Positions 8,721 to 58,912 of a stretch of 64,000 nt of DNA are shown here, one piece after another (the first letter of the stretch is position 1; each line of letters starts with the position of its first letter). This DNA is from a virus (lineage: Duplodnaviria > Heunggongvirae > Uroviricota > Caudoviricetes), in IMG/VR virus record IMGVR_UViG_3300046524_000235, one strand, 5' to 3'. The position numbers and the translations under genes are program-made. Below the pieces are notes generated by a model that was not told the DNA's origin, ran no database searches, and worked only from the letters and a program-made list of their open reading frames with translations.

Positions 8721-10127
8721 TTATATTGCAGCGTTCCTGCGAACTTCATTGAACGTCAGTTCCTTCACGAGCTTACCACCAGTGTACACGACTTCGAGAT
8801 GATCGTCACGACCCATTGCATTTTCACGACGGATCGTAGTCAGTTCACCGCTTTCGTCACTGACAAGTGCCAGACGCCCCTTCTTGCTAGTCTTGCCACC
8901 AGCAACAGGATCCTTGTACACGTCATTCCACTTGCCATCGATTTGAATTGCCGAAGCCTTCATTGCAAAGCCAAACGTATCACGGTCAAGCTTCTGGTGA
9001 AGAGCACCACCCATACCGAATGCAACGTTCTCAGCACTGAAACCATCCATCTTCAGAGCTGTGAGAATAGCTGCGATTGAGATCGGGTTTACACCGTCGC
9101 CTTGGATGACACGAACCTTGTTCAGGACTTTGAACCCTTTACCGTTCGTCGCGTATCCGAACTTGTCTGCGAGAATCCCAACAACCGTCCTAACAACCGA
9201 CACCGGATCTCCGGAATCAGGTCTAACAACGAGAGTACCAGGCAAAGCAAGGACAAAATCACGAAGGGTATCGCCCCAGACGTTTTTGACAGCATTAAAG
9301 ATGTCGTAACTATCAGAGACAACTGCGAAAAGGCCACTGCCGAACTTCTCAGCCATATTACGATATGCGTCCGCTTCTCCTGAACGCCCCCAACTAGTAA
9401 TAGTACTATGCTCAGCAGCAGGGATGCTAAACCCAAGAGAATCACGTTCTGCTCCGTAGAATTGATGAGCGTACTCCATGCCGAGCATGGTGTCCGTACC
9501 CATGAAGTTCACCAAGTGTGCGGCACCAGCAATAGCAGAAGTTTCTGCAGAACTAGCACCACGAGCACCGAAGTCATGAAGCTTAAAAGGAAGCTCGTCA
9601 AGCGGCTTATCGCACGTATCGACCAGTCCTTTGAAGATGATTTCTTTACAGTGACGGCTGATCGTCGCAACTGTGGTACCAAACCAGGCCGCACGAAGGA
9701 TTTGCGTTTCATAGAATGAACCCATCCAAAGCATTTCGGGATCGTGACATTCGACGTCAATGATAGCATTGCCGATAGGCACTTGCGTACCTTCAGCTAC
9801 AGCACGGATCGTGATAGGCGCACGACCTCCGTACACTTCCACCACTTTACGGAATGCGCCTTCTGCAAACGGCTCTCCGTGAAGCTTACAGATACGTCCT
9901 GCTTCAATCACGTCGTCAAGCGCAATCGGAGTCAGAAGGTGATCCTTGATGTAGCCTTGAAGGCCAAACGGAGTTACGTGTGTGATACCGAAACCGCTAT
10001 TGTCCTTACGGGGTTCTACGTAAGAAGACAGAGCAGTTGCACCAGCCGGGTATTGCAGGAAATGGCTGTGCTTGTATGAATCGGTATTGAGAAGCGGATT
10101 GATTTTGAATTGTGACATTATTAACAC
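8721..10127 (-). CDS. nadV: nicotinamide phosphoribosyltransferase (NadV)
   Basis: N-terminal LNTDSYK motif and overall NAMPT-like sequence, about 470 aa. Confidence 0.85.
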   Translation of the reverse strand: MLIMSQFKINPLLNTDSYKHSHFLQYPAGATALSSYVEPRKDNSGFGITHVTPFGLQGYIKDHLLTPIALDDVIEAGRICKLHGEPFAEGAFRKVVEVYGGRAPITIRAVAEGTQVPIGNAIIDVECHDPEMLWMGSFYETQILRAAWFGTTVATISRHCKEIIFKGLVDTCDKPLDELPFKLHDFGARGASSAETSAIAGAAHLVNFMGTDTMLGMEYAHQFYGAERDSLGFSIPAAEHSTITSWGRSGEADAYRNMAEKFGSGLFAVVSDSYDIFNAVKNVWGDTLRDFVLALPGTLVVRPDSGDPVSVVRTVVGILADKFGYATNGKGFKVLNKVRVIQGDGVNPISIAAILTALKMDGFSAENVAFGMGGALHQKLDRDTFGFAMKASAIQIDGKWNDVYKDPVAGGKTSKKGRLALVSDESGELTTIRRENAMGRDDHLEVVYTGGKLVKELTFNEVRRNAAI

Positions 10128-10171
10128 CTCGTTAATTAGAATGCCCAGAATCTATTTCTGGGACTTTTGTT

Positions 10172-11329
10172 TTAGATACCAAGCATCTTGCGAATGATCG
10201 ATGAGTGATCTTCGAAGATCAGTTCAGCGTGACTTAGTACATAGTCGATCTCGTACCAGTCTGTAGCCTTTTGCAAAGCGGTGCTTGCGACTGCATCGTC
10301 GCCACCCTTTACCTTAGGAAGCCCCGGCTTTTTGTCCGACTTATCCAGGTCAAAAAGAAAAGCGTGCGAAATAGTGCGCCCACGCAAACTACGGCCAGGA
10401 TGATCAAAAACAACACCGGCAGACATACTACCGCTAAGAAGACCTCTTGGAAGGTCAATCGAAGTTTCCTCTTGTAATTCACGGATCGCCGCATCTTCAA
10501 GCCTTTCATTTTGTTCCAGGAATCCTCCGGGTAATGCAAGGAGTCCTTCCCCCGGTGCAGCTTTACGCTTCACCATCAAAATATGACCAGCCTTCTTGAC
10601 AATCGCATCGACAGTCACAAAGGTAGGTGCATACGGTGCTGCTTTCCAGGAGTCTTTGTACTTCTGCACCATCTTGTATTCACGTCCAAGACGCAGATAC
10701 TCCGGAGTTTTGATGAACTCCTTGATGAAGCTAAAAGTGTACTCCGGAACCAAACTTTTGAGAAGCTCAATGAAACCAGGCTTCTCAAAGATTACTTCAC
10801 GGATAGCTGTAGCATCAAAGCCAAGCTTGACTTCGTCTACTGCAACGTAATCGTACTGCGGAAAGAGATCAAGGTAGTACGAGCTTTCGTCTTTCTTGTT
10901 ACCGACGATTGCAACCTTGCTTTTTACATCTTTGTCTGTCCAACCCTTTCCTGCCAAGAGAACAGTTGCTACTTCGTTTTGCACGGAAGTAACCCACTCA
11001 TCATCTGAGTAGAGGTTATCCACAAGCGGAGCCGTGAAAATGTTCGAAGTACCAGCCGCTTGAATAACCATTTGCGAACGTTCATCGTACGTAAATGGAT
11101 TCTTGATAGTGCGTGGTGCGTGCGAAGAACCGATAAGAACCAATACCTTGTCAGCCACCATGAACGCCTTATTCAAAAGGATCTGGTGACCTACATGCAA
11201 GGGTTCGAAACGACCAATGACTACAGCCAGGTCGTATTGATTTTCTTCTGTGGATACTGCAAGTTGTTTACTGCCAAAAGTAGCTGCGTACATTTCAGCC
11301 ACTTCATGATAAAGTTTACTATGTGACAT
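10172..11329 (-). CDS. natV: bifunctional NMN adenylyltransferase / Nudix hydrolase (NatV-type)
   Basis: GRFEPLHVGH nucleotidyltransferase motif N-terminally. C-terminal Nudix box GGFLEQNERLEDAAIRELQEETSI. Confidence 0.8.
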   Translation of the reverse strand: MSHSKLYHEVAEMYAATFGSKQLAVSTEENQYDLAVVIGRFEPLHVGHQILLNKAFMVADKVLVLIGSSHAPRTIKNPFTYDERSQMVIQAAGTSNIFTAPLVDNLYSDDEWVTSVQNEVATVLLAGKGWTDKDVKSKVAIVGNKKDESSYYLDLFPQYDYVAVDEVKLGFDATAIREVIFEKPGFIELLKSLVPEYTFSFIKEFIKTPEYLRLGREYKMVQKYKDSWKAAPYAPTFVTVDAIVKKAGHILMVKRKAAPGEGLLALPGGFLEQNERLEDAAIRELQEETSIDLPRGLLSGSMSAGVVFDHPGRSLRGRTISHAFLFDLDKSDKKPGLPKVKGGDDAVASTALQKATDWYEIDYVLSHAELIFEDHSSIIRKMLGI

Positions 11330-11388
11330 TCGAGCCTCTCGAAAGTTAAAAGAAGCGGTAACTCTCTGCTACCGCTGATAAATCAATT

Positions 11389-15677: not shown

Positions 15678-16652
15678 TTACTCCGATTTCGGAGCAGCCT
15701 TCGGCGTCCAGTCGGTCGGAACCTTCAGCAGTTCCTTGTTTTCGACACGGTGCGACCCAACGTGGCCGACCAGAATGCCCAGCGGAACGAAGTTGTTCGT
15801 TTCCAGGCCATACGCCTTCGCACGGTTGATGTCGGCAATACGAGTCTTTGCAGCTTCGACGGTGTTGCGAGCCGAACGGATTTCTGATACGTTTTCTTCG
15901 ATTACGATTTCAGCAGCGTTCAGAACGCCCATCACTTCCTTAGCCGCCGCGATGGCCGCTTCCTTCTTCTGCGCTGCTTGCATGTCTTGCAGTGCTTCAC
16001 GCAGATCCACGTTCAGACCGCCGAAGTCAGCGACTTCCTTGGTGAATTGCGAATCTGCCAGACGGATTATTGCGTTGCTCATGGTCGTTTCTTCCTTTTT
16101 GGTTGTAGGTACTTCGAGTTTATTGCAGATGGTCTTGCCAGGGCGGAAATGCCGTTTCTTAAGATACTCCACCTTGACCTGATCGGTGATAGGGGTGCCG
16201 TCAGTATACTCAAACTGCACACCTTCCCTTGACACAATTACCGTGTAATCGTTGCATGGAATCAGATCTTCTACTGGCAAAAGGTGAAGGTGAAGCTGAT
16301 ACGGACGGGACTTGGAGTCTGTTGACTCTATCTTCTTGGCGAGGTATAACTTACAAGAGCCGCCCATTACTTCAGGCTGTTTGATTTCAAGGAGAAAAGA
16401 TCCGCTCGCACTAGGACAGTGCCCGCCAACGAGCCTGTCGCATTTGGAGCAGCTCTGTTTCTTGGCGTCGAGTTTTTCCTTAAGCAACTGGCCGAGATTG
16501 GGCACTGCAGTTACTGGCTCATTCTCCTTCTGCTCAAAGTCGTTCATGCAAGGTCCGACCTTTGCGCTGACCGGTGTGAACCGATGGTCGAGATACTTTC
16601 CACCGCACGCAACACCAGGCCCTTTGAATTTTTTGCAATCACCGCACGGCAT
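15678..16652 (-). CDS. hypothetical protein with Cys-rich N-terminus (324 aa)
   Basis: CGDC…C…C clusters and an Ala/Lys-rich coiled C-terminus. AAGGAG SD upstream of the ATG at 16652. Confidence 0.5.
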   Translation of the reverse strand: MPCGDCKKFKGPGVACGGKYLDHRFTPVSAKVGPCMNDFEQKENEPVTAVPNLGQLLKEKLDAKKQSCSKCDRLVGGHCPSASGSFLLEIKQPEVMGGSCKLYLAKKIESTDSKSRPYQLHLHLLPVEDLIPCNDYTVIVSREGVQFEYTDGTPITDQVKVEYLKKRHFRPGKTICNKLEVPTTKKEETTMSNAIIRLADSQFTKEVADFGGLNVDLREALQDMQAAQKKEAAIAAAKEVMGVLNAAEIVIEENVSEIRSARNTVEAAKTRIADINRAKAYGLETNNFVPLGILVGHVGSHRVENKELLKVPTDWTPKAAPKSE

Positions 16653-17075
16653 TATTTCTCCTTATCTACAACGATTAAGTTCTGCAGCCTAAGACAAAGC
16701 TTAAGCGTTGAAGGGAACCCCGTACTGGACTACGGGGGTACTGCGGTTTAGTTTCGGTGGTCCAAACACCTAGTTGGTTTCGCTGCCTTACCAACAGAAG
16801 TTCCAACAGAAAGAGTGCAACTACATCTCTCTCTTCAGCTTTCCAACAGCGCTCCGTCCTTTATAGAGCTTCGCCTCATCAGCGCCAGAATCGAACCGGC
16901 CCCTCTGTTGGAAGTTTCCCCTTAACTGATTCGTTTAACTCTCAGCTAATCCGGTAGCGACTCCACTCTACCTCTCGACAGTTAGTTAATCCTCGTCAGG
17001 ACTTTGGTGATTCGAACACCATCGCTTGGTTCAGGGGAAAAGAAAGGCATCGAATAAATACAATGCTTCCTAATA
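16653..17075 (-). ncRNA. long structured leader or candidate ncRNA with tRNA-like T-arm motifs
   Basis: About 420 nt between the promoter-like motif (17076..17089) and the ATG at 16652. Contains GGTG-TTCGAAT-CACC and GCCGG-TTCGATT-CTGGC T-arm-like hairpins and an 8-bp ACCCCGTA/TACGGGGT hairpin. Confidence 0.3.
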
Positions 17076-17113
17076 AACTTATACCAATTCGAAATGTCGA
17101 AATTGAATAAAAC

Positions 17114-17485
17114 TTACAGACAACGCTCAATCACGTTTGCGATTTGCTTGAAGCTCAGCCTATCCGTATCATTCAGGTTTACCAGGGTAGTTGCCTGACC
17201 ACGATACGTAACATTGATATCAGTAGGCTCTGCTGCATCTTTCTCGCTTGCAACCTCCATCAAACCTGCCCACTCTACAACTGCAGGAGGAAGATGCCCG
17301 AATGCGTCCATATAGCTAAATTTGCTAGTCTCTTTTGCAGCAAGTTCCGGATGCTCTTGAGCATGAATGTTGCATAGAACGCCGAGGCAACAGAATCCAA
17401 TATCGTCACGGAGTTGGCCAGTAGTACGGGGGTAGTCACCGCTGCGAAGAGCTTTGAGCCACTTAGTTTTTACACGCTTTTTCAT
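17114..17485 (-). CDS. CCLGVL-family paralog P8
   Basis: KWLKALRSGDY, CCLGVLC, WAGL, LNDTDRLSFKQIANVIERCL. Confidence 0.6.
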   Translation of the reverse strand: MKKRVKTKWLKALRSGDYPRTTGQLRDDIGFCCLGVLCNIHAQEHPELAAKETSKFSYMDAFGHLPPAVVEWAGLMEVASEKDAAEPTDINVTYRGQATTLVNLNDTDRLSFKQIANVIERCL

Positions 17486-17514
17486 TTCAATTCTCGTTTA
17501 AAGTTGTTTACGAC

Positions 17515-17874
17515 TTACAGTTGTGCTTCAATAAGATCAGCGATTCCGGAAAATCCGGGATTCAAGCTAGGGCTATCGTTGAGAGTCCAAAGATCTTTCT
17601 TTGAGCCTTCGAACATTACCTTGCCATCATCATCAAGGCCGGCCCACCTACGGACTTCATCTGCAAGCATTCCCGGCGAATTTCCGTAAACAACCACTCC
17701 CTCAAGACCGTCGGGGTAGTGAAATCCCTTGCTCTCAGGATGCTCTTTGAGATGAAGTTCACAAAGAACGCCGAGGCAACAGTGACCTTCAGTCTTTTTA
17801 AGCTGACCTGTAGTCTGCTTGTACTCACCGCTACGAAGAGCGGCTACCCATTTTGCTTTTACCACTTGGTTCAT
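17515..17874 (-). CDS. CCLGVL-family paralog P7
   Basis: KWVAALRSGEYKQ, CCLGVLCE, WAGL, LNDSP…IADLIEAQL. Confidence 0.6.
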   Translation of the reverse strand: MNQVVKAKWVAALRSGEYKQTTGQLKKTEGHCCLGVLCELHLKEHPESKGFHYPDGLEGVVVYGNSPGMLADEVRRWAGLDDDGKVMFEGSKKDLWTLNDSPSLNPGFSGIADLIEAQL

Positions 17875-17876
17875 AT

Positions 17877-18233
17877 TTAAAGATCGTACTTAATAAGATC
17901 AACGATTTGTGAAAACGGCATATCGTGGTCGTTAAGGTTTGAAAGCCAAACTTCTCCGCCTTGCCTATTCGTGATCGACAATCCCCCGTCGAAAGACGCA
18001 AGACCAGACCACTTTTTAACTTGTACAGGCAAGTTACCTTCCGCTTTAAGAATGAGCTTCTTACCATAATCGAAATTGGAATTAACCCACGGCTCGCCCG
18101 TTTCCTTGGAATAGATATCGCAAAGAACCCCAAGGCAGCAGAACTGTTCATCTTTGTTGAGATTGAACTTTCCCTGCTTATACTCTCCGCTCTCAAGAGC
18201 AGCAATCCATTTCTGTTTGACTTCTTCGTTCAC
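17877..18233 (-). CDS. CCLGVL-family paralog P6
   Basis: KWIAALESGEYKQ, CCLGVLCD, WSGL, LND…FSQIVDLIKYDL. Confidence 0.6.
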   Translation of the reverse strand: MNEEVKQKWIAALESGEYKQGKFNLNKDEQFCCLGVLCDIYSKETGEPWVNSNFDYGKKLILKAEGNLPVQVKKWSGLASFDGGLSITNRQGGEVWLSNLNDHDMPFSQIVDLIKYDL

Positions 18234-20402: not shown

Positions 20403-21020
20403 TTAGTCGTCGTGCTTGCCGTCGTAATGACCTTTCCAGTACCCTTTATTCAATTCTCCGTTTATTGCCTTAACAAGAGTTTGAGCGGGAGCTTCTCTCA
20501 GAGCAAGCATCATTGCGAAGTTAGCAATATCGGTAGGGTCACCCTTGTACAAGTGTTCAACCAACATATCTGCAAGTTTATCAACACTGCACCTTTCAGG
20601 ATTGTCCCAACCGCCACGACCTTTCTCCCGAGCTTTAGCGAGCTTCGCTTTCATCATTGCTGCAAACTTATCCACAGCAACGTCGTCGGGATGAGGTTCT
20701 TCAACGGGTTGTTTGAAGCCCTGAAACATCTTCCTCAACTCTTCCATTCCCGCTTCAACTTGTCGAGCAGCTTCTGCAAAGGCCTCATACTGAGCAAATT
20801 GAACCGGAGACTTTTCATGTCCCAGAGCTTCAAGCATCATCTTCAGATCTTGCAAAGCAATTTCTCTATTCTTGTGCTGAGACCTGTGCGTATCACATGT
20901 AGCAGAAGCTCCTGTCGGGATATGAGTTGCACGAACCCCTACCCCCATAGAGGAGCCTACCCACGTTCTAGGCTCCGTATAAAACACATCTAACTTAATG
21001 TCTTTTGGATCAAGTTCCAT
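20403..21020 (-). CDS. release-factor (RF-1/GGQ-domain) homologue lacking the GGQ motif
   Basis: VRATHIPTGASATCDTHRSQHKNREIAL aligns to RF1 [28 protein letters not shown]. The position of SGAGGQHVN is occupied by PRTWVGSSMGVG, so there is no GGQ. Confidence 0.6.
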   Translation of the reverse strand: MELDPKDIKLDVFYTEPRTWVGSSMGVGVRATHIPTGASATCDTHRSQHKNREIALQDLKMMLEALGHEKSPVQFAQYEAFAEAARQVEAGMEELRKMFQGFKQPVEEPHPDDVAVDKFAAMMKAKLAKAREKGRGGWDNPERCSVDKLADMLVEHLYKGDPTDIANFAMMLALREAPAQTLVKAINGELNKGYWKGHYDGKHDD

Positions 21021-26030: not shown

Positions 26031-26081
26031 TAAAAAAGGACCTCGATATTAGCTGAGGTCCTGCGAAAAGCATGTGCTGCG

Positions 26082-26155
26082 TGGGCCATTCTGGACTTGA
26101 ACCAGAGACCGGACGATTATGAGTCGTCTGCTCTAACCAACTGAGCTAATGGCCC
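26082..26155 (-). tRNA. tRNA-Met or Ile2 (anticodon CAT)
   Basis: Cloverleaf: GGGCCAT/ATGGCCC acceptor, GCTC-AGTTGGTTA-GAGC, anticodon loop CTCATAA, T arm TCTGG-TTCAAGT-CCAGA. Confidence 0.75.
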
Positions 26156-26172
26156 ACATAGCACACGCCAAC

Positions 26173-26243
26173 TAAAACAAGGGGGACTCGAACCCCCAGC
26201 GTCACAAGAGTTTGTGCTGCTCTACCGATTGAGCTATTGTTTT
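26173..26243 (-). tRNA. tRNA-like element / probable pseudo-tRNA (anticodon not assignable)
   Basis: All-A·U acceptor AAAACAA/TTGTTTT, good D arm and GGGGG-TTCGAGT-CCCCC T arm. The only clean anticodon stem (CACAA/TTGTG) encloses a 4-nt loop. Confidence 0.35.
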
Positions 26244-26264
26244 AAAAAGATATTCTCTTTTACA

Positions 26265-27393: not shown

Positions 27394-27416
27394 GATGAAC
27401 CTTGTGGTGAAAACGA

Positions 27417-41710: not shown

Positions 41711-44131
41711 TTAAAGACGCGGATCCATTTCTTTCTCTTGGTTGAGTTGCGAGATCATCTTCACAATCAACTCAGTCATTGCAGGACCGTTGTCAGCCGA
41801 AAGCATCTTCGTTGCCAGTTCGAACTCCTTGATAGAGACCTTCAGTTTACCACCAACTCGCTTCTGCTTGCACAGTGCTTCGTAGCGACGTTTGTAGTCG
41901 AAGCCATAGACGAGAGTCAGGTAATTTTCATTCCGGACTTTCATATACGGTGCTACGTCTTCAGGTCCGGCGAGAGGTTTAATGACAACACCCTCCATGC
42001 CGTGTTCGATAGTCAGTTCCTTGAAGAAGTTTTCAGCCATTTGCAGCTGGCTCTCATCATCGAGATCGATGACCAGCCAGTCATCCCCATTCACTTCATC
42101 GAATGAGTCAGCTTGTTCAACGCGAGTAAATACATTGCCATCGATTTTCAGAATTGCAAACGGCTTGTAATATGGCTCGCCAGTTGCGGAGTACAGATTC
42201 AGCGTATCCGAAAACGTCTTCAGATCGTTCTCAAGCAAATCCTGAGCATCGATCTTCTGCTTAAAGTCAAGCTTAGCAAATTCTTCGTCCTGAGCAAGTG
42301 TCGAAAGCTCATAGTGTACAAGACCTTCATACGCTTTGAACTGCTCTTCAACAAGACCAGTACCAAGAGTCGTCCACGGCAGAAGCTCACCGTCCAGAAT
42401 AAGTTCATCGAACGAATTCGGAAGGAACTTTTCTTCATACTCAGCAAGAAGCTTCTGAAGCATAACAGTAAGCTCTTCTGTCATGCGAATCTTGAATCCA
42501 TTTCTGGAAACAAGGAAACACTTCTCCGGTTGACCGTGATACAGATACGCCTGACAACGTGAGCCCATGTACTTCGGTTGAATAGCAACCTGATCTACAC
42601 CCTTGTCTTTGAAGTACTTAAGACCAGCTTCAAGGCTTTCGATCTTACCTTCGGTTGACGGAGCCGGAGCCATCGTACCAGAAATGTACTTAATGCCGTT
42701 CTTCAGCGTACGATTCAAAAACTTCATGTCGTCTGGAGACAACTTATAATCATAAATGCTGAAGGGACGCTCCTTCAAACCGATAGGTACGGTCAAGTCA
42801 GACTTCAACTCTTTTTGATGCTCGACCAGCGACTCGGTCTTGACATCGACGTAAACATATCGATTGTTTTTGTACGAAAACGCAGTAAGCTTGTTACCGT
42901 ACACTGCTCCGGTATCCAGGAAGATCTTGTTACGGAACTCAATCTTACCGGCATTGTGAGCAACGTGACCGAATACATGAATAGGATGGTTACGAACAGC
43001 CTGATCGAAGATGAACTTGTACGCTTCACGATAGTCTTTATCACGACGACCGAAAAGATTACGCTGCGCCTTAAGTGCATCATTGCTCAGCTTACCCAGA
43101 TACTTGTTTTCACAAGGAGCATGGGTTACATACACGGTTCGTATATCCCGTCCAAATACTTTCAGGAACGGAGTAGAGTGATTGTCAAACAAGTCAACAA
43201 GCACGGCGGCAAGGTCAGGACGTTCCAGGAGAACCTTAAGTGAAGACATATACTTAGCCTCCAGTTCAAGATCAGGATTTTTGATTTCGCCCTTGATACG
43301 CTTCACAGCGTAGCTCTCATGGTTTCCGTGAATGATACGGCCACCTTCGTCAACAAACTTTGAAACCAGCCGAAGCATGTTCTCCGTGTCATTGCCTTTG
43401 TCTAGATAATCACCTACAAGAACGTTGATACTGTCCTTAGGCAACTTCTCCAGCATTTCAGTAAGACCCTTAACGTGCTCATGGGTATCACCGATGATGT
43501 TCAGCTCTTTGTTCGAAGTCAAGTACAAGCTGCTCTTGGCATAAACATCGAGGTCTTTGATTTCAACTTCGATATCAGCCCAGTACTTCGGATCACGTTC
43601 ACGGATACGGATGTTTCCGTCGTGTTCTTTTCGGCCAAGGTTAGGAAGAACGTGCTGCTTAAAACGAGCTGCACTGCTGTCTACTACTAGCTTTTCTTCC
43701 GGCGTAGATTCAGACGAATATGACTTATTGGTGTACTCGAAAGTAACCAGTTCAGTACGATACTCGTTGGTTTCCGCAAGAGTCCTGACTTTCTTTCGGA
43801 ACTCGTCGTTCATGCCAGTCGTATCAACGATCACGAACTCGCTGTTGACAGGGAACATGATCGCAGCTTCAAGTTTCGCCATCAAGACCTTAAACGCGGC
43901 CTCTGAAGCCTCCGCCATGAGCGGGGAATACCGATGGAGGTTCTTATGGCCGTAAAGGCTCTCACGCTCGGAATCGGAGCTGATAATAGGAATTGCACAG
44001 CTCGCTCCAAGCCCTGCTTTGGCCATTTCTTCGCCAAGCGCAAGTTGAAGTTGGTGTGAGAACGTGCTCTTACCGCACATCGAAGGTCCGACGAGAATAA
44101 AAACGGTATGGAGCTTAGTTTCGATTTTCAT
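41711..44131 (-). CDS. Pnkp-like RNA repair enzyme: polynucleotide kinase - metallophosphatase - ligase
   Basis: P-loop (VGPSMCGKST), calcineurin-like phosphoesterase motifs (GDTHEH, GDYLDKGN, GNHE), C-terminal KxDG nucleotidyltransferase motif (LKIDGN). Confidence 0.6.
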   Translation of the reverse strand: MKIETKLHTVFILVGPSMCGKSTFSHQLQLALGEEMAKAGLGASCAIPIISSDSERESLYGHKNLHRYSPLMAEASEAAFKVLMAKLEAAIMFPVNSEFVIVDTTGMNDEFRKKVRTLAETNEYRTELVTFEYTNKSYSSESTPEEKLVVDSSAARFKQHVLPNLGRKEHDGNIRIRERDPKYWADIEVEIKDLDVYAKSSLYLTSNKELNIIGDTHEHVKGLTEMLEKLPKDSINVLVGDYLDKGNDTENMLRLVSKFVDEGGRIIHGNHESYAVKRIKGEIKNPDLELEAKYMSSLKVLLERPDLAAVLVDLFDNHSTPFLKVFGRDIRTVYVTHAPCENKYLGKLSNDALKAQRNLFGRRDKDYREAYKFIFDQAVRNHPIHVFGHVAHNAGKIEFRNKIFLDTGAVYGNKLTAFSYKNNRYVYVDVKTESLVEHQKELKSDLTVPIGLKERPFSIYDYKLSPDDMKFLNRTLKNGIKYISGTMAPAPSTEGKIESLEAGLKYFKDKGVDQVAIQPKYMGSRCQAYLYHGQPEKCFLVSRNGFKIRMTEELTVMLQKLLAEYEEKFLPNSFDELILDGELLPWTTLGTGLVEEQFKAYEGLVHYELSTLAQDEEFAKLDFKQKIDAQDLLENDLKTFSDTLNLYSATGEPYYKPFAILKIDGNVFTRVEQADSFDEVNGDDWLVIDLDDESQLQMAENFFKELTIEHGMEGVVIKPLAGPEDVAPYMKVRNENYLTLVYGFDYKRRYEALCKQKRVGGKLKVSIKEFELATKMLSADNGPAMTELIVKMISQLNQEKEMDPRL

Positions 44132-45438
44132 GCTTGATCCTTGTTCTTAGTTACTACCACCATCGTCGAAGTAGCAATGTTATTTACACTATCACCGATT
44201 CCTTGAACAGAAATAGAGATTGCATGACCTTCCGAAACATTCCAGAACCAGTCACCGAATTCTTTAAGGCCCGGCTCCCACTTGTGATCATCATGACGGA
44301 ACTGTGTTTCGTCCATCAGATAGTTCACATTGAATTCCTTGTTAGGAACCGTGAGAATCAGCTTGTTGAAGTTAGTCTTCAGCACGGCTTGAATCAGCTC
44401 TGCTGCGACATCCTTTTCCATGTGTTCAAGCACTTCAGTGATGAGTACATCAGCTCCATCGAATAGAGCGCTGCAATCGTCAATTGATTCAGGAGTTGCT
44501 GCTTCTTTGAAGGTGATATTCTCAACTCCTCGACCACTGGCTTTCCCCACGGCGTTCTCACGTACTTCGTCATCCGCTTCATACGCAAGGATTTGTTCAT
44601 ACTTTGCACTGAGCGGGATCGAATAATTGAGTTCGCCGCACCCAATGTCAATGAGGACCGACCCTCCTCCCAAATGCGGGAAGATAGCCTCTTTACGTTG
44701 ACTGAGAGTGTCCCCGTGCCAGAGGTTAATACTGGGCGTATCGAGCAACGGCTTGTTTTTAGCAAAGGTTTCACGATTCGTAAACACATTCCGTTTAAAG
44801 AGGTATCGGATGAAGTAAGGTGCATCGATGCGATTAATTGCATTGATGTACTTTTCAATGATATCTCCCTTAAGGTTGACGTAAATGCTCTTTGTCGTAA
44901 CGCAGAACATCAAGAAAATAACCATTGCTGCATTCAGAAGATGATGAACACTAGGTCCGACAATGCGAACTTTGTATGCATGACCAGAAATCAGTTCTGC
45001 ATGAAAGCTGTAGCCTTGATCGAAACCAAACGGCCCATTGAAATGTTGCTCCATGTGCCTAAGCGTGCTTGCACTGCGAATCTCAACCGTAGTTTCGAGC
45101 CATGCGCTAAAAGGAACACTAGCATCTTCTTCCTGATGTTCTTTGAACGCAGTTGCCAGGCAGTTCGTCATCAGGCTAATCGGAAGGTACGGCGAAGCAT
45201 AGCGAGTACGATCAAGATACTCAAACTCCTGGTCCCGCCCTTCGGCAAATGAGCAGTGCAGAGCATGATCCTTGAACCACAACCTAAAAGCTTGGTCTCC
45301 TTCTAGAAACCATCCGTACACTGAACCTTGTCGGATGGACTTCTTAAACGGATCTTTCGATTCACGAATCGTTGCGGGGTTTTTCTGAATGACCCAAGAA
45401 AACTTCGGGTTACTAGACCCAAGAGTAAGCACTGACAT
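44128..45438 (-). CDS. Hen1-like RNA 3'-terminal 2'-O-methyltransferase
   Basis: C-terminal SAM-MTase motifs (VLIDIGCGELNY, DVLITEVLEHM). About 250-aa N-terminal domain. Translationally coupled to the Pnkp-like gene. Confidence 0.5.
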   Translation of the reverse strand: MSVLTLGSSNPKFSWVIQKNPATIRESKDPFKKSIRQGSVYGWFLEGDQAFRLWFKDHALHCSFAEGRDQEFEYLDRTRYASPYLPISLMTNCLATAFKEHQEEDASVPFSAWLETTVEIRSASTLRHMEQHFNGPFGFDQGYSFHAELISGHAYKVRIVGPSVHHLLNAAMVIFLMFCVTTKSIYVNLKGDIIEKYINAINRIDAPYFIRYLFKRNVFTNRETFAKNKPLLDTPSINLWHGDTLSQRKEAIFPHLGGGSVLIDIGCGELNYSIPLSAKYEQILAYEADDEVRENAVGKASGRGVENITFKEAATPESIDDCSALFDGADVLITEVLEHMEKDVAAELIQAVLKTNFNKLILTVPNKEFNVNYLMDETQFRHDDHKWEPGLKEFGDWFWNVSEGHAISISVQGIGDSVNNIATSTMVVVTKNKDQA

Positions 45439-51128: not shown

Positions 51129-51608
51129 TTAGTTGCTATAGTATCCTGAAACCAGCCATGCTGGTTCCGTGTAGCTTATACCATACTTCTCGCAGAAATT
51201 GCGCAGTCTATCGATCTCTTCTTGAGACACTTCCAGGTCCTCTGGATCGAGCTTTGTGCAATCCCAGATTTCTCCTACTGATACCTTCTTTGAATACAGA
51301 ATGTATGCAGGATATTCACTTGTGCCGTAGTGTTCTATTCCGACGCCTACATTTTCCAAGGCGTTATGCTTAGCATCCCAGTAAGCACAATACAACTCCT
51401 TGGTTTCTTCTGAATAATCTTCTGTTGGGTGCACTACTCCTAATTCTTTCAGAATCAAACTTTCAACAGCGTCTCCAACGCCATCGTAGTTTTCTTCTCC
51501 CACCGCTTCCCGAAGAGTATTTTCAAACTTCTCAAACTCTTCGTAGTCATCTTCGATACCCCCTAGATCAATACCGAAAACTAACTTTATATCTATACTC
51601 ATCCCCAT
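51129..51608 (-). CDS. hypothetical acidic protein (159 aa)
   Basis: Intact ORF. Confidence 0.4.
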   Translation of the reverse strand: MGMSIDIKLVFGIDLGGIEDDYEEFEKFENTLREAVGEENYDGVGDAVESLILKELGVVHPTEDYSEETKELYCAYWDAKHNALENVGVGIEHYGTSEYPAYILYSKKVSVGEIWDCTKLDPEDLEVSQEEIDRLRNFCEKYGISYTEPAWLVSGYYSN

Positions 51609-52438
51609 TACTGCCCCGCATGAAAAAGTCTAAACGAACCTTGACTCACAGTAAGCGACGTGAGCTTAGGAACATCATTAATAACTTCAATTGCACTTCT
51701 GATTACTTCTCTTGATGCTGGCTTGTTAGCGTCAGGAATCAACGACCAAGTATGGTCATCAATCGCTACGAGCTTCTTAAACTTCTTGGTGAACGTACCT
51801 TGCCTAAAAGATTCAGGATAGTCGTGGAAGTTAATCCCTACTTGTCGAAGCATTTCAATTTTCTCAGCAGTGTTTTTATGAAGCAACTCTGAGTTGTTGA
51901 AGACCGTGTGCGCAGCCATGCTGACACTGTTCTTACGAGCATCCCACTGACGCCATACAAAGTAATCATATGCTTGCTCCCATTTTGGGAATTGGAATAC
52001 ACGAGCATCAAAGACTGGACGTGCTGCGAATTTGCTCGGCAGGAAGCCTTGCAAGTAACTGTTAAAAATCACTGAGCACTTTGCAGCATAGACGCTTAGC
52101 CATTTCTGAACCTTGCCATCAAAGTTCAGCTGTGCAGTAGGATCCCTATTAAACCAAAGAAGACTGATCTCATCGCTCTGGTGGTATGCCAGATCAGGAT
52201 TCAATTCCTTGATCAGATCATCCACTGTACATTGAAACGTTTGAGCCAGTTCTTTATCGTAGGGCTTGGTGAGACCCTTTGTGAATGTATGGAATGCGTT
52301 CCCATCAAAGCGAATGACAGTCGGCAGACCTGGCATCAAGTGTTCGCTGTTGTACTTCTTTTCATACCGCTTCATTTCGTCGCCAAGAGCGTTGAAATCA
52401 AGATGGCGAATTTCTTCTGTTATCTGTGTCTGTGTCAT
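51608..52438 (-). CDS. Thg1-like protein (tRNA-His guanylyltransferase family, 3'-5' polymerase)
   Basis: VIRFDGNAFHTFTKGLTKPYD matches the Thg1/TLP active-site signature. Start moved to ATG at 52438, because the track's TTG-initiated extension is the reverse complement of a hairpin. Confidence 0.55.
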   Translation of the reverse strand: MTQTQITEEIRHLDFNALGDEMKRYEKKYNSEHLMPGLPTVIRFDGNAFHTFTKGLTKPYDKELAQTFQCTVDDLIKELNPDLAYHQSDEISLLWFNRDPTAQLNFDGKVQKWLSVYAAKCSVIFNSYLQGFLPSKFAARPVFDARVFQFPKWEQAYDYFVWRQWDARKNSVSMAAHTVFNNSELLHKNTAEKIEMLRQVGINFHDYPESFRQGTFTKKFKKLVAIDDHTWSLIPDANKPASREVIRSAIEVINDVPKLTSLTVSQGSFRLFHAGQ

Positions 52439-52451
52439 TTGAGTAAACCAA

Positions 52452-52490
52452 AAAAAACCGGGGAGGTCGAGTCCCCGGTCAAAGACCAAT
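52452..52490 (-). terminator. hairpin + T8 (intrinsic terminator or attenuator) 13 nt upstream of the Thg1-like start
   Basis: Minus sense: CCGGGGA-CTCGACC-TCCCCGG then TTTTTTTT. Confidence 0.4.
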
Positions 52491-52566
52491 TGACGGGTTA
52501 GGTCAATGCACTACCAAGAAAGGGAATTAACCAATGATGACGATCAATGAGTTTCTTCCATACTTT

Positions 52567-52579
52567 ACTTATACCAAAA
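52567..52579 (-). promoter_or_regulatory. promoter-like motif at the edge of the iteron region
   Basis: Plus-strand acttataccaaaa. Confidence 0.4.
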
Positions 52580-52589
52580 CCACTATAGA

Positions 52590-53200
52590 TTAGTGACTTT
52601 TTGGACGTGTCCAGTTTCCTTAAAAAATGTCCAGTTTTAAAATTTCAGAATTCTTCTTTATAATCAAAGACTTAAAGAGGGTTTGTCCAGTGTGTCCAAT
52701 TCTTGTTTAGAAAACTGGACAGGTGTTTTCTCTTTAGAATCAAGAGCTTAGATACGATTGTCCAGAAATTTCGGCTTTTTCGCAAAAACCATACCTCACT
52801 TTCTAATAGCCAAAAGATTTACCAAAAAAGAAAACAGACCCCTTATATATAAATATATTTTTTAAAAGTTCAAATATAAATATATATATAGTACCCCCTG
52901 TTTTCTGGACTGGTTAGGGCTAACCCTAAGTTTTTCTTTTTTTGTTTTTTATTTAGTCAAAAAGAAAGTGAGGTATGGTTTTTGGAAAAAAGCCGATATT
53001 TCTGGACAAAGTGACTTAAGTGTTTGATTCTAAAGAGTAAAATGTGTCCAGTTTTTTTTAGAGAAATTGGACAAACTGGACAGATGCTAGTTAAGTCTTT
53101 GATTCTAAACATTATTTTTCAAAAGTAAGAACTGGACATTTTTGGACAAAACTGGACACATTGAATTTGAAGTCCAGTTTTAGTACAGAAGTATGGCTCT
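52590..53200. repeat. iteron-like array of TGTCCAG/CTGGACA half-sites, AT-rich core, and about 90-bp imperfect inverted repeat (candidate origin/regulatory hub)
   Basis: At least 14 copies of GTCCAG/CTGGAC in both orientations. Inverted arms about 52725..52805 and 52955..53045 (e.g. agaaatttcggctttttcgcaaaaaccatacctcactttct versus its near reverse complement). AT-rich tatataaatatat core 52810..52950. Confidence 0.6.
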
Positions 53201-53328
53201 GACTTCACCACAGCCTCCAGGACGGGCTGGAAACCCTAAGACATCACTTAGGTAGTCCAGGCTCGTCAGAGGCTCTAAGAGGCTTTAAATGACTAAAAAA
53301 GAGAGCCGGAAAATCGGCCCTCTCAAAG

Positions 53329-55969: not shown

Positions 55970-58912
55970 TTATTCGTTGAATTCACCGATATTTTTAATC
56001 GTATCTGGAGCTAGACTCATATCCAGTGTCAGCACAACTCTTCGAATACCGTTTAAACCCATCTTTACCTTGCGTTCATCACTTACAAAATACGGTTCTT
56101 CTCGTATAGCTGACAGCACTGCATTTTTCGAGAATGCAAATCTACCCCTAGTATCATCTAACACCTGCTTAAACACTGCAGGGTACCAGATGTGAATCAA
56201 GTTACCTTCAGTCAAAACGTGTGAGATGTTAATCTTCTGATGCTCCTGAGCCATCATGCCTTCTACGAGTTCAAAGAACTGCATAACCGTAGTGTCAGCC
56301 TTTTGACTAGTAGCTTCTTCAGCAGAAGCCTTAAACAGAAACTCTTTGAAGTTGAACTCAGGAATGTACTTGTCAGCAATACGCTTTGCAAATACTCCGA
56401 TTGCCGCCCAGTTCTTAGAAGTTCGCTGAGAGCAATTAGCCTCTCTAACAAGTTCCTTATCCAGGTCTCGAATCTCATCTTTGAGCTTGTCCATATCTTC
56501 GTCAACGCTATCAAGAATCCAGTGATAAACAACACCACTGAATAGATGACGACGATCCTCAAGCCAACGATACGATTCTGTTAACTCTCGGTTGTTTACC
56601 GGAATACGAACAGGTATGCAGCGCTCCCTGGTTGCAGGGTCCTCAAATAAGTCTTCACCGACGAACATGAAGCAGGAACGAACTTCTTGAGTCTTGACAC
56701 CAAAACCATCTTTAACTCCCATCGTTCTTGGAGTACGGTCATAGTACGTACGGAACAAGTTCACATACTCTTTCGTCTCTTGGTCTGATCGAATTTCATC
56801 GATGAAGACTGGAAGTGAAGAATAGTACTCAACCTTACGACCCCAACCTACTGCTGACTTCAACTGCGGAACTGAAGTGTAGCCACAGTCACGCATATCA
56901 TAAAAGTCTTGAATCCACTTCGCAATCGAAGTCTTACCTTTACCCTTCGTGCCCCATAGGAACAGATACGGAAAACTCTTGTTTAAAGAGAAAATCGTAT
57001 TTGAATAAATACAAGCATACATCCAGCCTAGAAGAATCAAAGCATGACCTGGATTGTTCAGATTCTTACTCAGATTCTCCACGATACCCTTCATGAGATC
57101 ATCTGCTTCAGCTCTTGAGATGTCAGGCTCGATATAAGGAATATCGACTTTCCCGGAGTTGTCCCCAGTTGTGTGAACCTGGTTCGAGGCAACGTTGAGC
57201 GATTCAGGTCTAATACCAACTGTCTTACCTGCAAGCCAAAATACTCCATCCTTATCTGGTTCGATAACAGCCCCTGTGTCAGAAATGAATCGATTGCGGA
57301 AGATCCAACCGCGCATTCCTTCATGACGTCCAACAGTTCGTGTAACACGGACTTGTGTTTCTGATGACTGGGAGTAGACGAGTTCCCAAAGTCCAGACAT
57401 ATCTCGTTCATTGCCTTTGAAATCGGCGTCAACCGCTCTTGCAAGCAATGTTCTGAAAGGCTTGAGAGAGACTTTGGTTTCCGAGTCGATTAGAATTGGA
57501 ATACTCTTTTGACCGTCTTCTCTGACGATAACGACTTCACGATGTCTATCCCCATCTTCAGTAATGTAAATGTTCTTCAGTACGATTACAAAGTCACTTA
57601 CTTTAGTGTACTGAGGCTCACCTTCTTTAAACGTTACTCGCCAGTAGGAACCCTTCTTCTGAACAATTGAGTTCTGAGCTAGTTCTTTTCCGGGAGGGAG
57701 GATTTCAATATCTCCTGAATCTTCTTCAGAAATATCTCGTTCTCTTTCTCCGTTATGTCCTTCACCGCCTGCCGACTCCATTCTCTGAAGATACGAGCCC
57801 CCATCGAACTGTACTTTTCCAGACCCGGACTCCACAGCCACGACCTGCGTTCCTGGCCCTTTGCTCGCTTCAATAAGCGCATCTACATCTGCTCCATTGC
57901 AAATCAGTTTATCAATGTCATCTTCACGTTCTCCAGGAATTACCTGAATTACAGTAGATAACGCTTTACGAAGTTTATCAACTTTAGTTCGATACTTATC
58001 ACCAGCTTCATCATTATCGAAGAACGTTACAATTGTCTTCTTGCTGAGATTCTCACGAATCCAGTCAAGTTGACTACCGGAGATCTGACCGATAGTTGCC
58101 AGTACGCCAGTTTTACCTGCACGCAATAGACTCAAACGATCATTCTCACCTTCAACGATGTAGACAGTGTCTTTACCTACAACAGTATCTTGTCCCCAAA
58201 ATTGATGCCCGTTAAGACAGAACCGATTTGGAAGCTGATACGCCAATTTCTTAAGCGGATCTTTGAAGGTAAAGTGGGAGACTCTACCTTTCACATAATG
58301 AGGATAGATGAATACCTTCGAAGGGAGGAAATCACGACCAGTCTTTTCACTCTTAAGTCCTGAAGCTAGAAGAATCTCTGTGTCATACCCCAATGCTTCA
58401 AGATACGCTACAACTCCGCCATCAGACCAACCTACATGTTCCTGCTTGAGAATCTCTTCAGAGTGTCCTCGTACCTTCATTTGATACTCGGACGGAGTCA
58501 TCTTCGCAAGCTCCATATAGGGCTTGTTGCACTCTTCCCAAAGACAATTCTCGTAATACGCTGCTGCTAACTGGAAAATCTCTGCAATCGGATTGTAGTC
58601 CGAAGGCAGTTTAATATCATGTTCCTTCGAAAGCTTAAGACACGCTTCTCGAAGAGTTACATCATTACGTTTTGCAGTCCACTCAATGACGTCTCCATGA
58701 GCCTCGCAGCTAAAGCAGTGGTAACCTGCCTTCTCTGGTTCGTCCTCATTAAAGAACATCTTGAAGCAGCCTTTATGACCACAGAATGGACAACCTACGT
58801 CTTCATCGTCTTCAAATCTAAATGTGTTTGTACCATTTTCTACAATTGACTGCTGAGTATCGTTTGCGATTTGCTCAAGCAGGTTTACAGCCTTTTTAAT
58901 TGTTTCAAACAT
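55970..58912 (-). CDS. DNA primase-helicase (zinc-binding + TOPRIM + P-loop NTPase)
   Basis: CPFCGHKGCF…CFSC zinc motif, TOPRIM (TFFDNDEAGDKY), Walker A (WGTKGKGKTS). Confidence 0.65.
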   Translation of the reverse strand: MFETIKKAVNLLEQIANDTQQSIVENGTNTFRFEDDEDVGCPFCGHKGCFKMFFNEDEPEKAGYHCFSCEAHGDVIEWTAKRNDVTLREACLKLSKEHDIKLPSDYNPIAEIFQLAAAYYENCLWEECNKPYMELAKMTPSEYQMKVRGHSEEILKQEHVGWSDGGVVAYLEALGYDTEILLASGLKSEKTGRDFLPSKVFIYPHYVKGRVSHFTFKDPLKKLAYQLPNRFCLNGHQFWGQDTVVGKDTVYIVEGENDRLSLLRAGKTGVLATIGQISGSQLDWIRENLSKKTIVTFFDNDEAGDKYRTKVDKLRKALSTVIQVIPGEREDDIDKLICNGADVDALIEASKGPGTQVVAVESGSGKVQFDGGSYLQRMESAGGEGHNGERERDISEEDSGDIEILPPGKELAQNSIVQKKGSYWRVTFKEGEPQYTKVSDFVIVLKNIYITEDGDRHREVVIVREDGQKSIPILIDSETKVSLKPFRTLLARAVDADFKGNERDMSGLWELVYSQSSETQVRVTRTVGRHEGMRGWIFRNRFISDTGAVIEPDKDGVFWLAGKTVGIRPESLNVASNQVHTTGDNSGKVDIPYIEPDISRAEADDLMKGIVENLSKNLNNPGHALILLGWMYACIYSNTIFSLNKSFPYLFLWGTKGKGKTSIAKWIQDFYDMRDCGYTSVPQLKSAVGWGRKVEYYSSLPVFIDEIRSDQETKEYVNLFRTYYDRTPRTMGVKDGFGVKTQEVRSCFMFVGEDLFEDPATRERCIPVRIPVNNRELTESYRWLEDRRHLFSGVVYHWILDSVDEDMDKLKDEIRDLDKELVREANCSQRTSKNWAAIGVFAKRIADKYIPEFNFKEFLFKASAEEATSQKADTTVMQFFELVEGMMAQEHQKINISHVLTEGNLIHIWYPAVFKQVLDDTRGRFAFSKNAVLSAIREEPYFVSDERKVKMGLNGIRRVVLTLDMSLAPDTIKNIGEFNE

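Follow-up and report, generated by a model that had tools for sequence, protein, structure and literature searches.

The Thg1-like gene and its surroundings

A gene for a bacterial-type Thg1-like protein (TLP) occupies positions 51608–52438 on the minus strand of the window, by which we mean the whole 64,000-nucleotide stretch of DNA analysed here. It starts with the ATG at 52438, its stop codon ends at 51608, and it encodes 276 amino acids, in agreement with the open reading frame proposed earlier from the DNA alone (hereafter the sequence-only reading). A longer frame opened by a TTG at 52489 was discarded, since it would merely add a terminator hairpin and the homologues begin near the ATG. 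This terminator-like element, a GC hairpin followed by a run of T (52456–52480, minus strand, terminator scan), ends 17 nt ahead of the TLP start codon. The source is an uncultured jumbo phage with a genome of at least ~218 kb; a nucleotide search of the 45–58 kb section of the window against GenBank phages returned no match.

The gene that follows (orf159; 51129–51608, minus strand) encodes an acidic protein of 159 amino acids; its start overlaps the TLP stop codon, and the two genes are translationally coupled. It is an ORFan, for which Pfam and PHROG searches gave no match. The 88%-identical sister phage has it too, the 75–77% sisters do not, and it is therefore no obligatory partner of TLP; the idea of such a partner, or of a nuclease, was dropped on both grounds.

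Two adjacent genes with the standard domain sets of the bacterial Pnkp/Hen1 pair lie 6 kb downstream on the same strand. Hen1 (44128–45438) is the RNA 3'-terminal 2'-O-methyltransferase of the pair (Pfam Hen1_N, 3e-49; its methyltransferase domain gives a weak Pfam match of 21 bits). Pnkp (41711–44131) combines kinase, phosphatase and ligase for the healing and sealing of RNA ends (Pfam AAA_33, Metallophos, and PNKP_ligase at 2.3e-27). Sister phages likewise carry Hen1 6 kb downstream of TLP, and the order TLP, Hen1, Pnkp is conserved in those whose TLPs are 75–88% identical. When 20 window proteins were compared by tblastn with 80 other viral TLP loci from IMG/VR, no homologue of Pnkp or Hen1 turned up within 10 kb of TLP, and none of orf159 beside it. 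The linkage is therefore specific to this lineage, and the notion of a conserved TLP-repair operon was rejected.

TLP itself is part of the replication module: an iteron-rich region resembling an origin directly precedes it, genes for a UDG-exonuclease, PolA and RNase H come after it, and this position is fixed across all sister phages. Further genes related to translation are found elsewhere on the minus strand. A PTH2 peptidyl-tRNA hydrolase (31588–32001; Pfam PF01981, 6.7e-32) lies within the tRNA array, and an RF-1-domain protein (20403–21020; Pfam RF-1, 2.4e-9; PHROG 20323) carries an ArfB-like ribosome-rescue or peptidyl-tRNA hydrolase domain. Ro60 and a YrlA-like (Y-RNA-like) RNA gene are located just past the left end of the window.

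The tRNA array (14626–35630, minus strand) consists of 22 genes, 21 detected by ARAGORN and one, tRNA-Phe (30282–30354), added by Rfam. It serves 17 amino acids and includes an amber suppressor (CUA) and one odd tRNA; tRNAs for His, Gly and Trp are not among the 22. Non-Watson-Crick 1:72 pairs, which the sequence-only reading had pointed out, do occur in the ARAGORN folds: G1·U72 in Ile(GAU) (30020–30094), Val(UAC) (30105–30179) and Leu(UAG) (33779–33857), U1·U72 in Gln(UUG) (33485–33560), and A1·A72 in a CAU tRNA with a long variable arm (30187–30267). An alternative register of the latter (gcagag/ctctgc, with G1:C72) was set aside, as comparison with the sister phages, with the encoded CCA at 74–76, favours the mismatched one.

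Active site, fold and distribution of the phage TLP

The Pfam profile PF04446 (Thg1) matches TLP over positions 2–130 of its 130 (E=1.3e-27; 96.7 bits against a cut-off of 29.2), which bears out the earlier family call. PHROG 4717, named 'tRNA-His guanylyltransferase', matches at 1.9e-71. The closest solved structure by sequence is 4KGK, the TLP of Bacillus thuringiensis (BtTLP; E 1.9e-35, 39% identity over 203 aligned residues), whereas matches to eukaryotic Thg1 range from 1e-8 to 1e-12. The Thg1 C-terminal domain PF14413 remains below its cut-off (17.7 against 26.3 bits); nonetheless, the AlphaFold2 (AF2) model aligns with BtTLP over ~257 columns. NCBIfam gave no match to TLP. Family membership is established by these results and, judged by sequence, the product is a phage-borne Thg1-family 3'-5' polymerase of the repair-type TLP branch.

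The peptide VIRFDGNAFHTFTKGLTKPYD, quoted by the sequence-only reading as the Thg1/TLP catalytic signature, is indeed encoded at 52256–52318 (minus strand) and contains the catalytic residues R43, metal-binding D45, activation-site K58 and D61, corresponding to R28, D30, K43 and D46 of BtTLP; residue roles are taken from PMC3701042 and PMC6471195. The motif HQSDEIS (52163–52183, minus strand) supplies S88, D89 and E90 (BtTLP S74, D75, E76), where D89 maps to the second metal carboxylate and E90 to the third conserved carboxylate. In an alignment of 20 TLPs, R43, D45, D61, S88, D89 and E90 are invariant. The three conserved carboxylates D45, D89 and E90 (BtTLP D30, D75, E76; human THG1 D29, D76, E77) are thus all present, and the active site is intact. 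Functional residues of BtTLP retained in the phage protein also include E26, K112, R146 and R163; the exception is BtTLP R16, which is replaced by Asn (N30). Met174, within WRQWDARKNSVSMAA, corresponds to M158 of BtTLP, at the site where eukaryotic Thg1 has Asn161. In the alignment, the phage TLP lacks the eukaryotic HINNLYN motif (H154, N161), which serves GUG anticodon recognition and adenylylation (PMC6471195).

The AF2 model (pLDDT 88.2, pTM 0.84) displays the polymerase-like palm fold of solved Thg1/TLP structures. Searched against the PDB with Foldseek, it returned Thg1/TLP entries for all of the top 32 matches, the best being BtTLP (E 1.3e-17, TM 0.82).

TLP genes occur in 151 GenBank phages and on at least 589 IMG/VR contigs. 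The gene is not new in kind: hundreds of large phages are already recorded as carrying one. Reports of phage Thg1 genes date from 2010 (PMC2904730), 2013 (PMC3601020) and 2021 (PMC7824862), and the same papers put forward, as hypotheses, maturation of tRNA-His or RNA repair as a counter to host defences; the searchable literature yielded no biochemical assay of any phage TLP. The protein described here is conserved in an uncultured lineage of 16 metagenomic relatives (65–88% identity), and no GenBank phage or IMG/VR homologue exceeds 45% identity to it.

Proposed function of the phage TLP

We hypothesize that TLP is a catalytically intact templated 3'-5' RNA polymerase that repairs 5'-shortened tRNAs and forms one item of a translation-maintenance kit, a reading to which we assign a probability of roughly 55%. 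By homology with BtTLP, the enzyme would bind a tRNA whose 5' strand is at least one nucleotide short, activate its 5'-monophosphate with ATP or GTP (K58, S88), and join the NTP that pairs with the unpaired nucleotide of the 3' strand (N72, N71, or C73 in tRNA-His). The joining step would employ two Mg2+ ions on D45 and D89, with NTP contacts by R43, K112 and R146, and the cycle would repeat until the acceptor stem is complete. The kit would sustain translation during infection and would comprise the 22 tRNAs, Pnkp/Hen1, PTH2, the RF-1-domain rescue factor, and Ro60 with its Y-RNA-like gene. Pnkp/Hen1 would heal, seal and methylate broken RNA, and the Pnkp kinase could provide the 5'-phosphate that TLP requires. 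We infer the activity of TLP, its use of tRNAs in vivo, the origin of the damage to their 5' ends, and any cooperation with Pnkp.

BtTLP favours 5'-truncated tRNAs 5–160-fold over addition at position -1, adds any templated nucleotide and accepts tRNAs other than tRNA-His (PMC3061083). That the phage enzyme restores tRNAs whose 5' ends were lost to host attack is plausible. For the antiphage tRNases reviewed in PMC12916289 and in a 2026 OLD preprint, the cleavage sites lie in the anticodon loop or stem, in the D-loop, on the 3' side of the acceptor stem or in the CCA tail, and no tRNase in either paper is reported to trim tRNA 5' ends; the damage that TLP would repair is therefore hypothetical. 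We also count against the repair reading that TLP is located in the replication module, that BtTLP R16 is N30, and that the linkage to Pnkp/Hen1 is lineage-specific.

A more specific form of repair, possible but rather doubtful, would have TLP counter an undescribed host attack that strips 5' nucleotides from tRNAs, acting in series with Pnkp, with the kinase making the 5'-phosphate and TLP refilling the stem. As a sub-variant, TLP may in this lineage also provide the G-1 of phage tRNA-His whose genes do not encode it. Such a gene exists in the sister phage L092. The tRNA-His(GUG) gene of this phage has C at position -1 and C73, followed by CCT, such that G-1 is not encoded. The L092 contig measures 47,831 bp, as does the contig bearing an 83%-identical TLP (P0003).

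That gene also bears on the proposal that TLP matures tRNA-His altogether, adding G-1 opposite C73 to phage or host tRNA-His lacking it and so enabling charging by histidyl-tRNA synthetase. BtTLP performs this addition as efficiently as yeast Thg1 (PMC3061083), and the database names of the family derive from the tRNA-His role. However, ~82 kb of the phage genome of at least ~218 kb (the window plus 8–9 kb past each end) yielded no tRNA-His; within the window, the search comprised ARAGORN, Rfam at gathering threshold, and Rfam at E≤1 over 13–37 kb. The lineage has kept TLP while six of seven sister-phage tRNA clusters examined, the window included, are devoid of tRNA-His, which argues for a role wider than His maturation. 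Among the 80 IMG/VR loci, only two tRNA-His genes lie next to TLP, and both encode G-1 already. Furthermore, T stands at -1 of the tRNA-His gene in T5, in the T4-like phages AR1 and CHI14, and in Bxz1, and a tRNA-His gene lacking G-1 does not imply TLP: T5, AR1, CHI14 and probably Bxz1 appear to belong to groups without it. For T5 and the T4-like phages this assignment follows from 'Escherichia' falling outside the ten commonest names among the 151 TLP hits, i.e. at most 4 records, compared with 155 Escherichia phage records that match a tRNA-His probe; for Bxz1 it follows from 11 Mycobacterium TLP records against 185. On balance, we regard the His-maturation proposal as unlikely.

Substrates other than tRNA, which we consider quite unlikely, would see TLP extend or repair the 5' ends of the Y-RNA-like RNA, of phage transcripts or of replication primers, or make nucleotide products. 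The palm domain of Thg1/TLP is akin to those of GGDEF and Cas10 cyclases; however, Foldseek matches of the model to cyclases are weak (E ~0.02). To our knowledge, all characterised family members use tRNA or tRNA-like acceptor stems, and the phage protein retains all residues for templated addition. The fixed place of the gene after the origin-like region in all sister phages would fit such a substrate, as would the nucleotide-metabolism genes that neighbour TLP in other viral contigs (NAMPT in 7 of 80 loci, RNR in 3 of 80). On the other hand, auxiliary genes of phages are often scattered in early or replication modules without a functional tie. Non-tRNA substrates have been raised for some TLPs by a 2019 review.

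The sequence-only reading had taken the 1:72 pairs as marks of natural substrates for 5' editing. Such editing, performed by a Dictyostelium TLP in mitochondria (PMC6471195), would strip the encoded G·U, U·U and A·A pairs at their 5' side and rewrite them on the template of the 3' strand. The pairs are real, but they do not support this interpretation. U1·U72 of tRNA-Gln is retained in six of seven sister phages while the remaining stem varies. Positions 1 and 72 of the CAU tRNA are mismatched throughout: hand inspection of five phages showed A·A, C·A, U·U, A·A and A·A, and an automated table gave a mismatch for each of two further phages. Mismatches conserved beside variable stem pairs mean that the encoded 5' base matters. 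The CAU tRNA also has GGG/CCC beside its anticodon loop, which together with the 1:72 mismatch we take to be the bacterial initiator signature; the tRNA looks initiator-like, and its mismatch would therefore be an identity element. Initiator function requires this mismatch, so that repair would abolish the function of the CAU tRNA.

The same pairs are found in phage T5, apparently of a group without TLP: U1·U72 in Gln and in the initiator, and G1·U72 in Val and Tyr. When tRNAs from all the phage loci covered are pooled, G1·U72 is a trait of those charged by class I synthetases (50 of 186 tRNAs, compared with 1 of 121 for class II), a bias that points to aminoacylation-linked selection and not to errors awaiting repair; G·U is, moreover, a stable pair. 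G1·U72 is frequent in tRNAs adjoining IMG/VR TLP genes (33 of 156), but most of this excess derives from loci of 27–33% GC, and the pair also occurs in T5 and Bxz1; we do not regard it as specific to TLP. Judging from these comparisons, the odd 1:72 pairs are normal features of phage tRNAs. With irregular acceptor-stem pairs restricted to position 1, unlike the positions 1–3 of mitochondrial editing, and with no 5' nuclease partner identified, 5' editing is highly improbable.

With this gene, a class already known gains a divergent member, and the argument that the 1:72 'mismatches' are substrates falls away. Annotations of phage TLP genes go back fifteen years, and the role of these genes in infection is directly testable; the present lineage offers a convenient test case, with TLP found together with a full tRNA array, Pnkp/Hen1, PTH2 and Ro60/Y-RNA. 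Should a host nuclease directed at tRNA 5' ends exist, TLP would be a handle for finding it. If the sub-variant concerning G-1 holds, a bacterial virus would carry out eukaryote-style maturation of tRNA-His.

Comparison with known systems

Bacterial Pnkp/Hen1, both proteins of which this phage encodes, is complementary in function to TLP, since it heals RNA ends and can phosphorylate their 5' termini. The two systems are distinct: Pnkp/Hen1 closes internal breaks and is tied to TLP by neighbourhood only, and in this lineage only.

Dictyostelium DdiTLP3 and the mitochondrial editing TLPs share family and chemistry with the phage protein; they act on many tRNAs with the 3' strand as template. 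The DdiTLP3 system rewrites mismatches in the first three acceptor-stem pairs, whereas the irregular pairs of the phage are confined to position 1 and are either conserved or G·U.

Eukaryotic Thg1 of yeast and human, the tRNA-His G-1 guanylyltransferase, has the same fold and two-metal active site, but is a much more distant match than BtTLP. The phage TLP lacks HINNLYN and Asn161, and non-templated addition of G-1 opposite A73 is therefore not expected.

BtTLP (PDB 4KGK, 4KGM) shares with the phage protein the catalytic carboxylates, the residues for activation and nucleotidyl transfer, the Met at the Asn161 site and the absence of HINNLYN, and its templated 5'-end repair of truncated tRNAs would, by analogy, be expected of the phage enzyme too. 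The latter differs in being phage-encoded, in having Asn in place of R16, and in size: it exceeds BtTLP by ~30 residues and has, in its C-terminal half, an insertion common to other phage-type TLPs.

Phage TLPs on record (PHROG 4717) include, among others, those of Pseudomonas 201phi2-1, Ralstonia RsoM2USA, Pectobacterium CBB, Cronobacter GAP32, Burkholderia BcepSauron, Caulobacter CcrColossus and Bacillus Bc431v3. All belong to the same family, and their carriers, like the source phage, are mostly large or jumbo phages that bear tRNAs. Compared with these, the present TLP stands apart by its low identity (45% at most), by its separate uncultured lineage, and by its location in the same segment as Pnkp/Hen1.

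The Thg1-like protein and its active site

The open reading frame at 51608-52438 on the minus strand (running from the ATG at 52438 through the stop codon to 51608) encodes a protein of 276 aa exactly as described in the sequence-only reading, and the peptide which that reading took for the catalytic signature is encoded at 52256-52318. An alternative TTG start at 52489 would extend the frame by a terminator-like hairpin only, and in an alignment of relatives the starts of homologues cluster near the ATG. The earlier identification as a Thg1-like protein (TLP) is borne out by Pfam Thg1 (PF04446), which matches over its entire profile (E = 1.3e-27, 96.7 bits, cut-off 29.2), and by PHROG 4717 ("tRNA-His guanylyltransferase", 1.9e-71). 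The Thg1 C-terminal domain model scores under its Pfam cut-off, and an NCBIfam search gave no match. The top match among solved structures is the Bacillus thuringiensis TLP (BtTLP, PDB 4KGK, 1.9e-35); eukaryotic Thg1 structures match at 1e-8 to 1e-12 only.

Residue roles described for BtTLP and Thg1 (PMC3701042, PMC6471195) were transferred via a HMMER alignment. The metal carboxylates and the third carboxylate (D30, D75 and E76 of BtTLP) correspond to D45, D89 and E90 of the phage protein, the activation residues K43 and S74 to K58 and S88, the nucleotidyl-transfer residues R28, K99 and R131 to R43, K112 and R146, and the supporting residues E12 and R147 to E26 and R163. The sole mapped residue that differs from BtTLP is R16, which is N30 in the phage protein. 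With the exception of K58, the mapped residues are invariant across 20 aligned relatives. An AlphaFold model computed from the alignment of 20 relatives (pLDDT 88.2, pTM 0.84) has Thg1/TLP structures as its best 32 PDB matches, with BtTLP ranked first (E 1.3e-17, target TM 0.82). Based on these profile and structure matches, the retained residues and the modelled fold, membership in the Thg1/TLP family is therefore secure, and enzymatic activity is predicted. In contrast to eukaryotic Thg1, the phage protein has a methionine (M174) in place of Asn161 and lacks the HINNLYN motif, which places it in the TLP branch.

Genomic setting of the gene

A nucleotide search of the 45-58 kb part of the window against GenBank phages returned no match. 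The exact TLP was found on 23 metagenome contigs. The longest of these (181,869 bp) overlaps no more of the window than its right 27.5 kb, which puts the genome at ~218 kb or more and makes the virus a jumbo phage. Every listed gene of the window lies on the minus strand. In transcription order, the primase (55970-58912) is followed by an HU-like gene and unknown genes, a non-coding gap of 0.9 kb, TLP, a 159-aa ORFan directly after it, a UDG-exonuclease, PolA, RNase H, Hen1 (44128-45438), Pnkp (41711-44131), ribonucleotide reductase, an array of 22 tRNA genes (14626-35630) including PTH2 (peptidyl-tRNA hydrolase, 31588-32001), an AAA ATPase, an RF-1-domain protein (20403-21020), ThyX, and the NAD+ salvage pair of an NMNAT-Nudix fusion and NAMPT (8721-11329). 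In the stretch past the left end (L100), a YrlA-like Y RNA (15745-15866; Rfam 39.8 bits, E 1.8e-5, below gathering score) precedes a Ro60/TROVE-vWA gene (16548-18179); together they occupy the region 3.2-5.7 kb from position 1, and a YqeY-domain gene is close by.

The bacterial-type RNA repair pair Pnkp/Hen1 (41711-45438) is complete and conserved in sister phages, i.e. metagenomic relatives of the same lineage. The gene order including Hen1 and Pnkp is the same in sisters with 75-88%-identical TLPs; the 159-aa reading frame is absent from relatives with 75-77%-identical TLPs. Among 80 other TLP-bearing viral loci (L007-L086), no homologue of the Pnkp or Hen1 described here was found within 10 kb of TLP, and NAMPT lies less than 10 kb away in 7. 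The link of TLP to Pnkp/Hen1 is lineage-specific.

The gap upstream of TLP (52439-53328, core 52605-53162) is a large imperfect palindrome with arms of 115 and 109 nt that are 77% complementary. It holds 10 of the 15 CTGGACA copies of the window, placed in either orientation about an AT-rich centre, and is flanked by terminator-like hairpins at 53299-53324 and 52456-52480, the latter ending 17 nt before the start codon. Neither a sigma-70-like promoter nor an obvious Shine-Dalgarno sequence was found between this hairpin and the TLP start (52439-52480). In sisters L087-L089, this motif or a related one (ACTGGACA, ATTGGACA) fills the corresponding gap. Located between the primase/HU and polymerase genes, the gap looks like a putative replication origin or iteron region.

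The tRNA array displays several further features. A tRNA of amber-suppressor type (CUA; 27405-27480, minus strand, Rfam 74.8 bits) is replaced by a UCA (opal) suppressor type in sisters L091, L092 and L102, and 68 long minus-strand reading frames end in TAG once, TAA 46 times and TGA 21 times; the suppressor tRNAs suggest stop-codon recoding somewhere in these genomes. The CAU tRNA (30187-30267, minus strand) has a variable region of unusual length, ends in ACCC instead of ACCA and scores only 30.8 bits in Rfam. Another odd tRNA (26172-26244, minus strand, 49.9 bits), 16 nt upstream of tRNA-Met (26081-26155), has an anticodon loop of 6 nt (AACTCT); its acceptor stem may span 8 bp (U-1:A73), and CCA is not encoded. 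The array total includes tRNA-Phe(GAA) (30282-30354, minus strand, Rfam 48.8 bits), which ARAGORN missed.

Possible roles of the enzyme

By analogy with BtTLP, we hypothesize that the phage TLP would repair 5'-shortened tRNAs by templated addition, as one function in a translation-protecting phage kit; we assign this role a probability of roughly 55%. [quoted passage not shown] The position of the gene in the replication module and the restriction of its Pnkp/Hen1 linkage to this lineage count against repair. Shortening of tRNA 5' ends is not reported for the antiphage nucleases in PMC12916289 and a 2026 OLD preprint.

Maturation of tRNA-His appears unlikely as an alternative. Sister L092, on a contig equal in length (47,831 bp) to that bearing an 83%-identical TLP, does encode a tRNA-His (11271-11345), immediately next to tRNA-Thr on its 5' side; position -1 is C, C73 is followed by CCT, and G-1 is not encoded. 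BtTLP adds G-1 well opposite C73 (PMC3061083), and the L092 tRNA would fit such templated addition. However, five other sisters lack tRNA-His in the clusters examined and retain TLP, and the window has none, nor do the 8-9 kb past either end. Moreover, the two TLP-adjacent tRNA-His genes found in IMG/VR (L053, L063) encode G-1, and T stands at -1 in tRNA-His of AR1 (L094), CHI14 (L095), T5 (L096, 15207-15283) and Bxz1 (L097, 7072-7145), the T5 and Bxz1 groups being TLP-negative as inferred from organism counts of matches. On these grounds, TLP may serve His maturation on the side, but this would not account for its retention. Phage tRNA-His with C73 is often without G at -1, also in groups lacking TLP. 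Where L092 has tRNA-His, the window holds a T5orf172/MUG113-domain reading frame (30445-31005, minus strand), probably a mobile-element gene; HNH endonuclease genes interrupt the tRNA arrays of other sisters.

A substrate other than tRNA is considered less probable again than His maturation. Editing of encoded 1:72 pairs, as proposed in the sequence-only reading, is highly improbable: ARAGORN folds reproduce all pairs named there, but conservation among sisters, occurrence in T5, from a presumably TLP-negative group, and class restriction are all contrary to it.

Clusters of six sisters were fetched through their PTH2 genes, giving seven phages with the window. Gln(UUG) has U1·U72 in six of them and U:A in the seventh, while the remaining stem varies. 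The CAU tRNA has GGG/CCC beside the anticodon loop and a 1:72 mismatch in all five hand-inspected phages (A·A, C·A, U·U, A·A and A·A, with the encoded CCA placed at positions 74-76) and, in an automated table, in two more. This combination is the bacterial initiator signature; such a tRNA requires the mismatch and would lose its initiator identity on repair. Ile, Val, both Leu and the suppressor have G·U or C:G among sisters, never G:C, an alternation which does not look like decay. In T5, Gln and the annotated initiator have U1·U72, and Val and Tyr have G1·U72; in Bxz1, four tRNAs have G1·U72 and Trp has U·U.

Across the window, L007-L086, L090-L093, L096, L097, L102 and L103, G1·U72 occurs in 50 of 186 class I-synthetase tRNAs and in 1 of 121 of class II, a doubtful call (Fisher p = 2e-11, identical sequences removed, relatedness uncorrected). 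Thus, the weak first pair looks like a selected trait of certain tRNA families. GlnRS opens the 1:72 pair, and other class I enzymes may by analogy do likewise. The G1·U72 tRNAs are those for Arg, Glu, Ile, Leu, Met, Tyr and Val only, and U·U is confined, at the tRNA loci examined, to Gln, Trp and initiator-like Met. The elevated share of G·U beside TLP genes in IMG/VR (33 of 156) stems mainly from loci of 27-33% GC.

Thg1-like genes in other phages

Thg1 was noted in phage 201phi2-1 in 2010, together with the question whether the enzyme matures His-tRNA or repairs RNA to counter host defences (PMC2904730), which Bacillus phage papers repeated (including PMC3601020); a 2021 jumbo-phage survey listed Thg1 with 5'-end restoration enzymes (PMC7824862). 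An assay of any phage TLP was not found in the searchable literature. Phage TLP genes are very common, with homologues in 151 GenBank phage records, mostly annotated as tRNA-His guanylyltransferase, and on at least 589 IMG/VR contigs. The protein described here shares no more than 45% identity with any GenBank or IMG/VR homologue among the matches listed, and is well supported as a real, divergent new member of this known class of phage genes.
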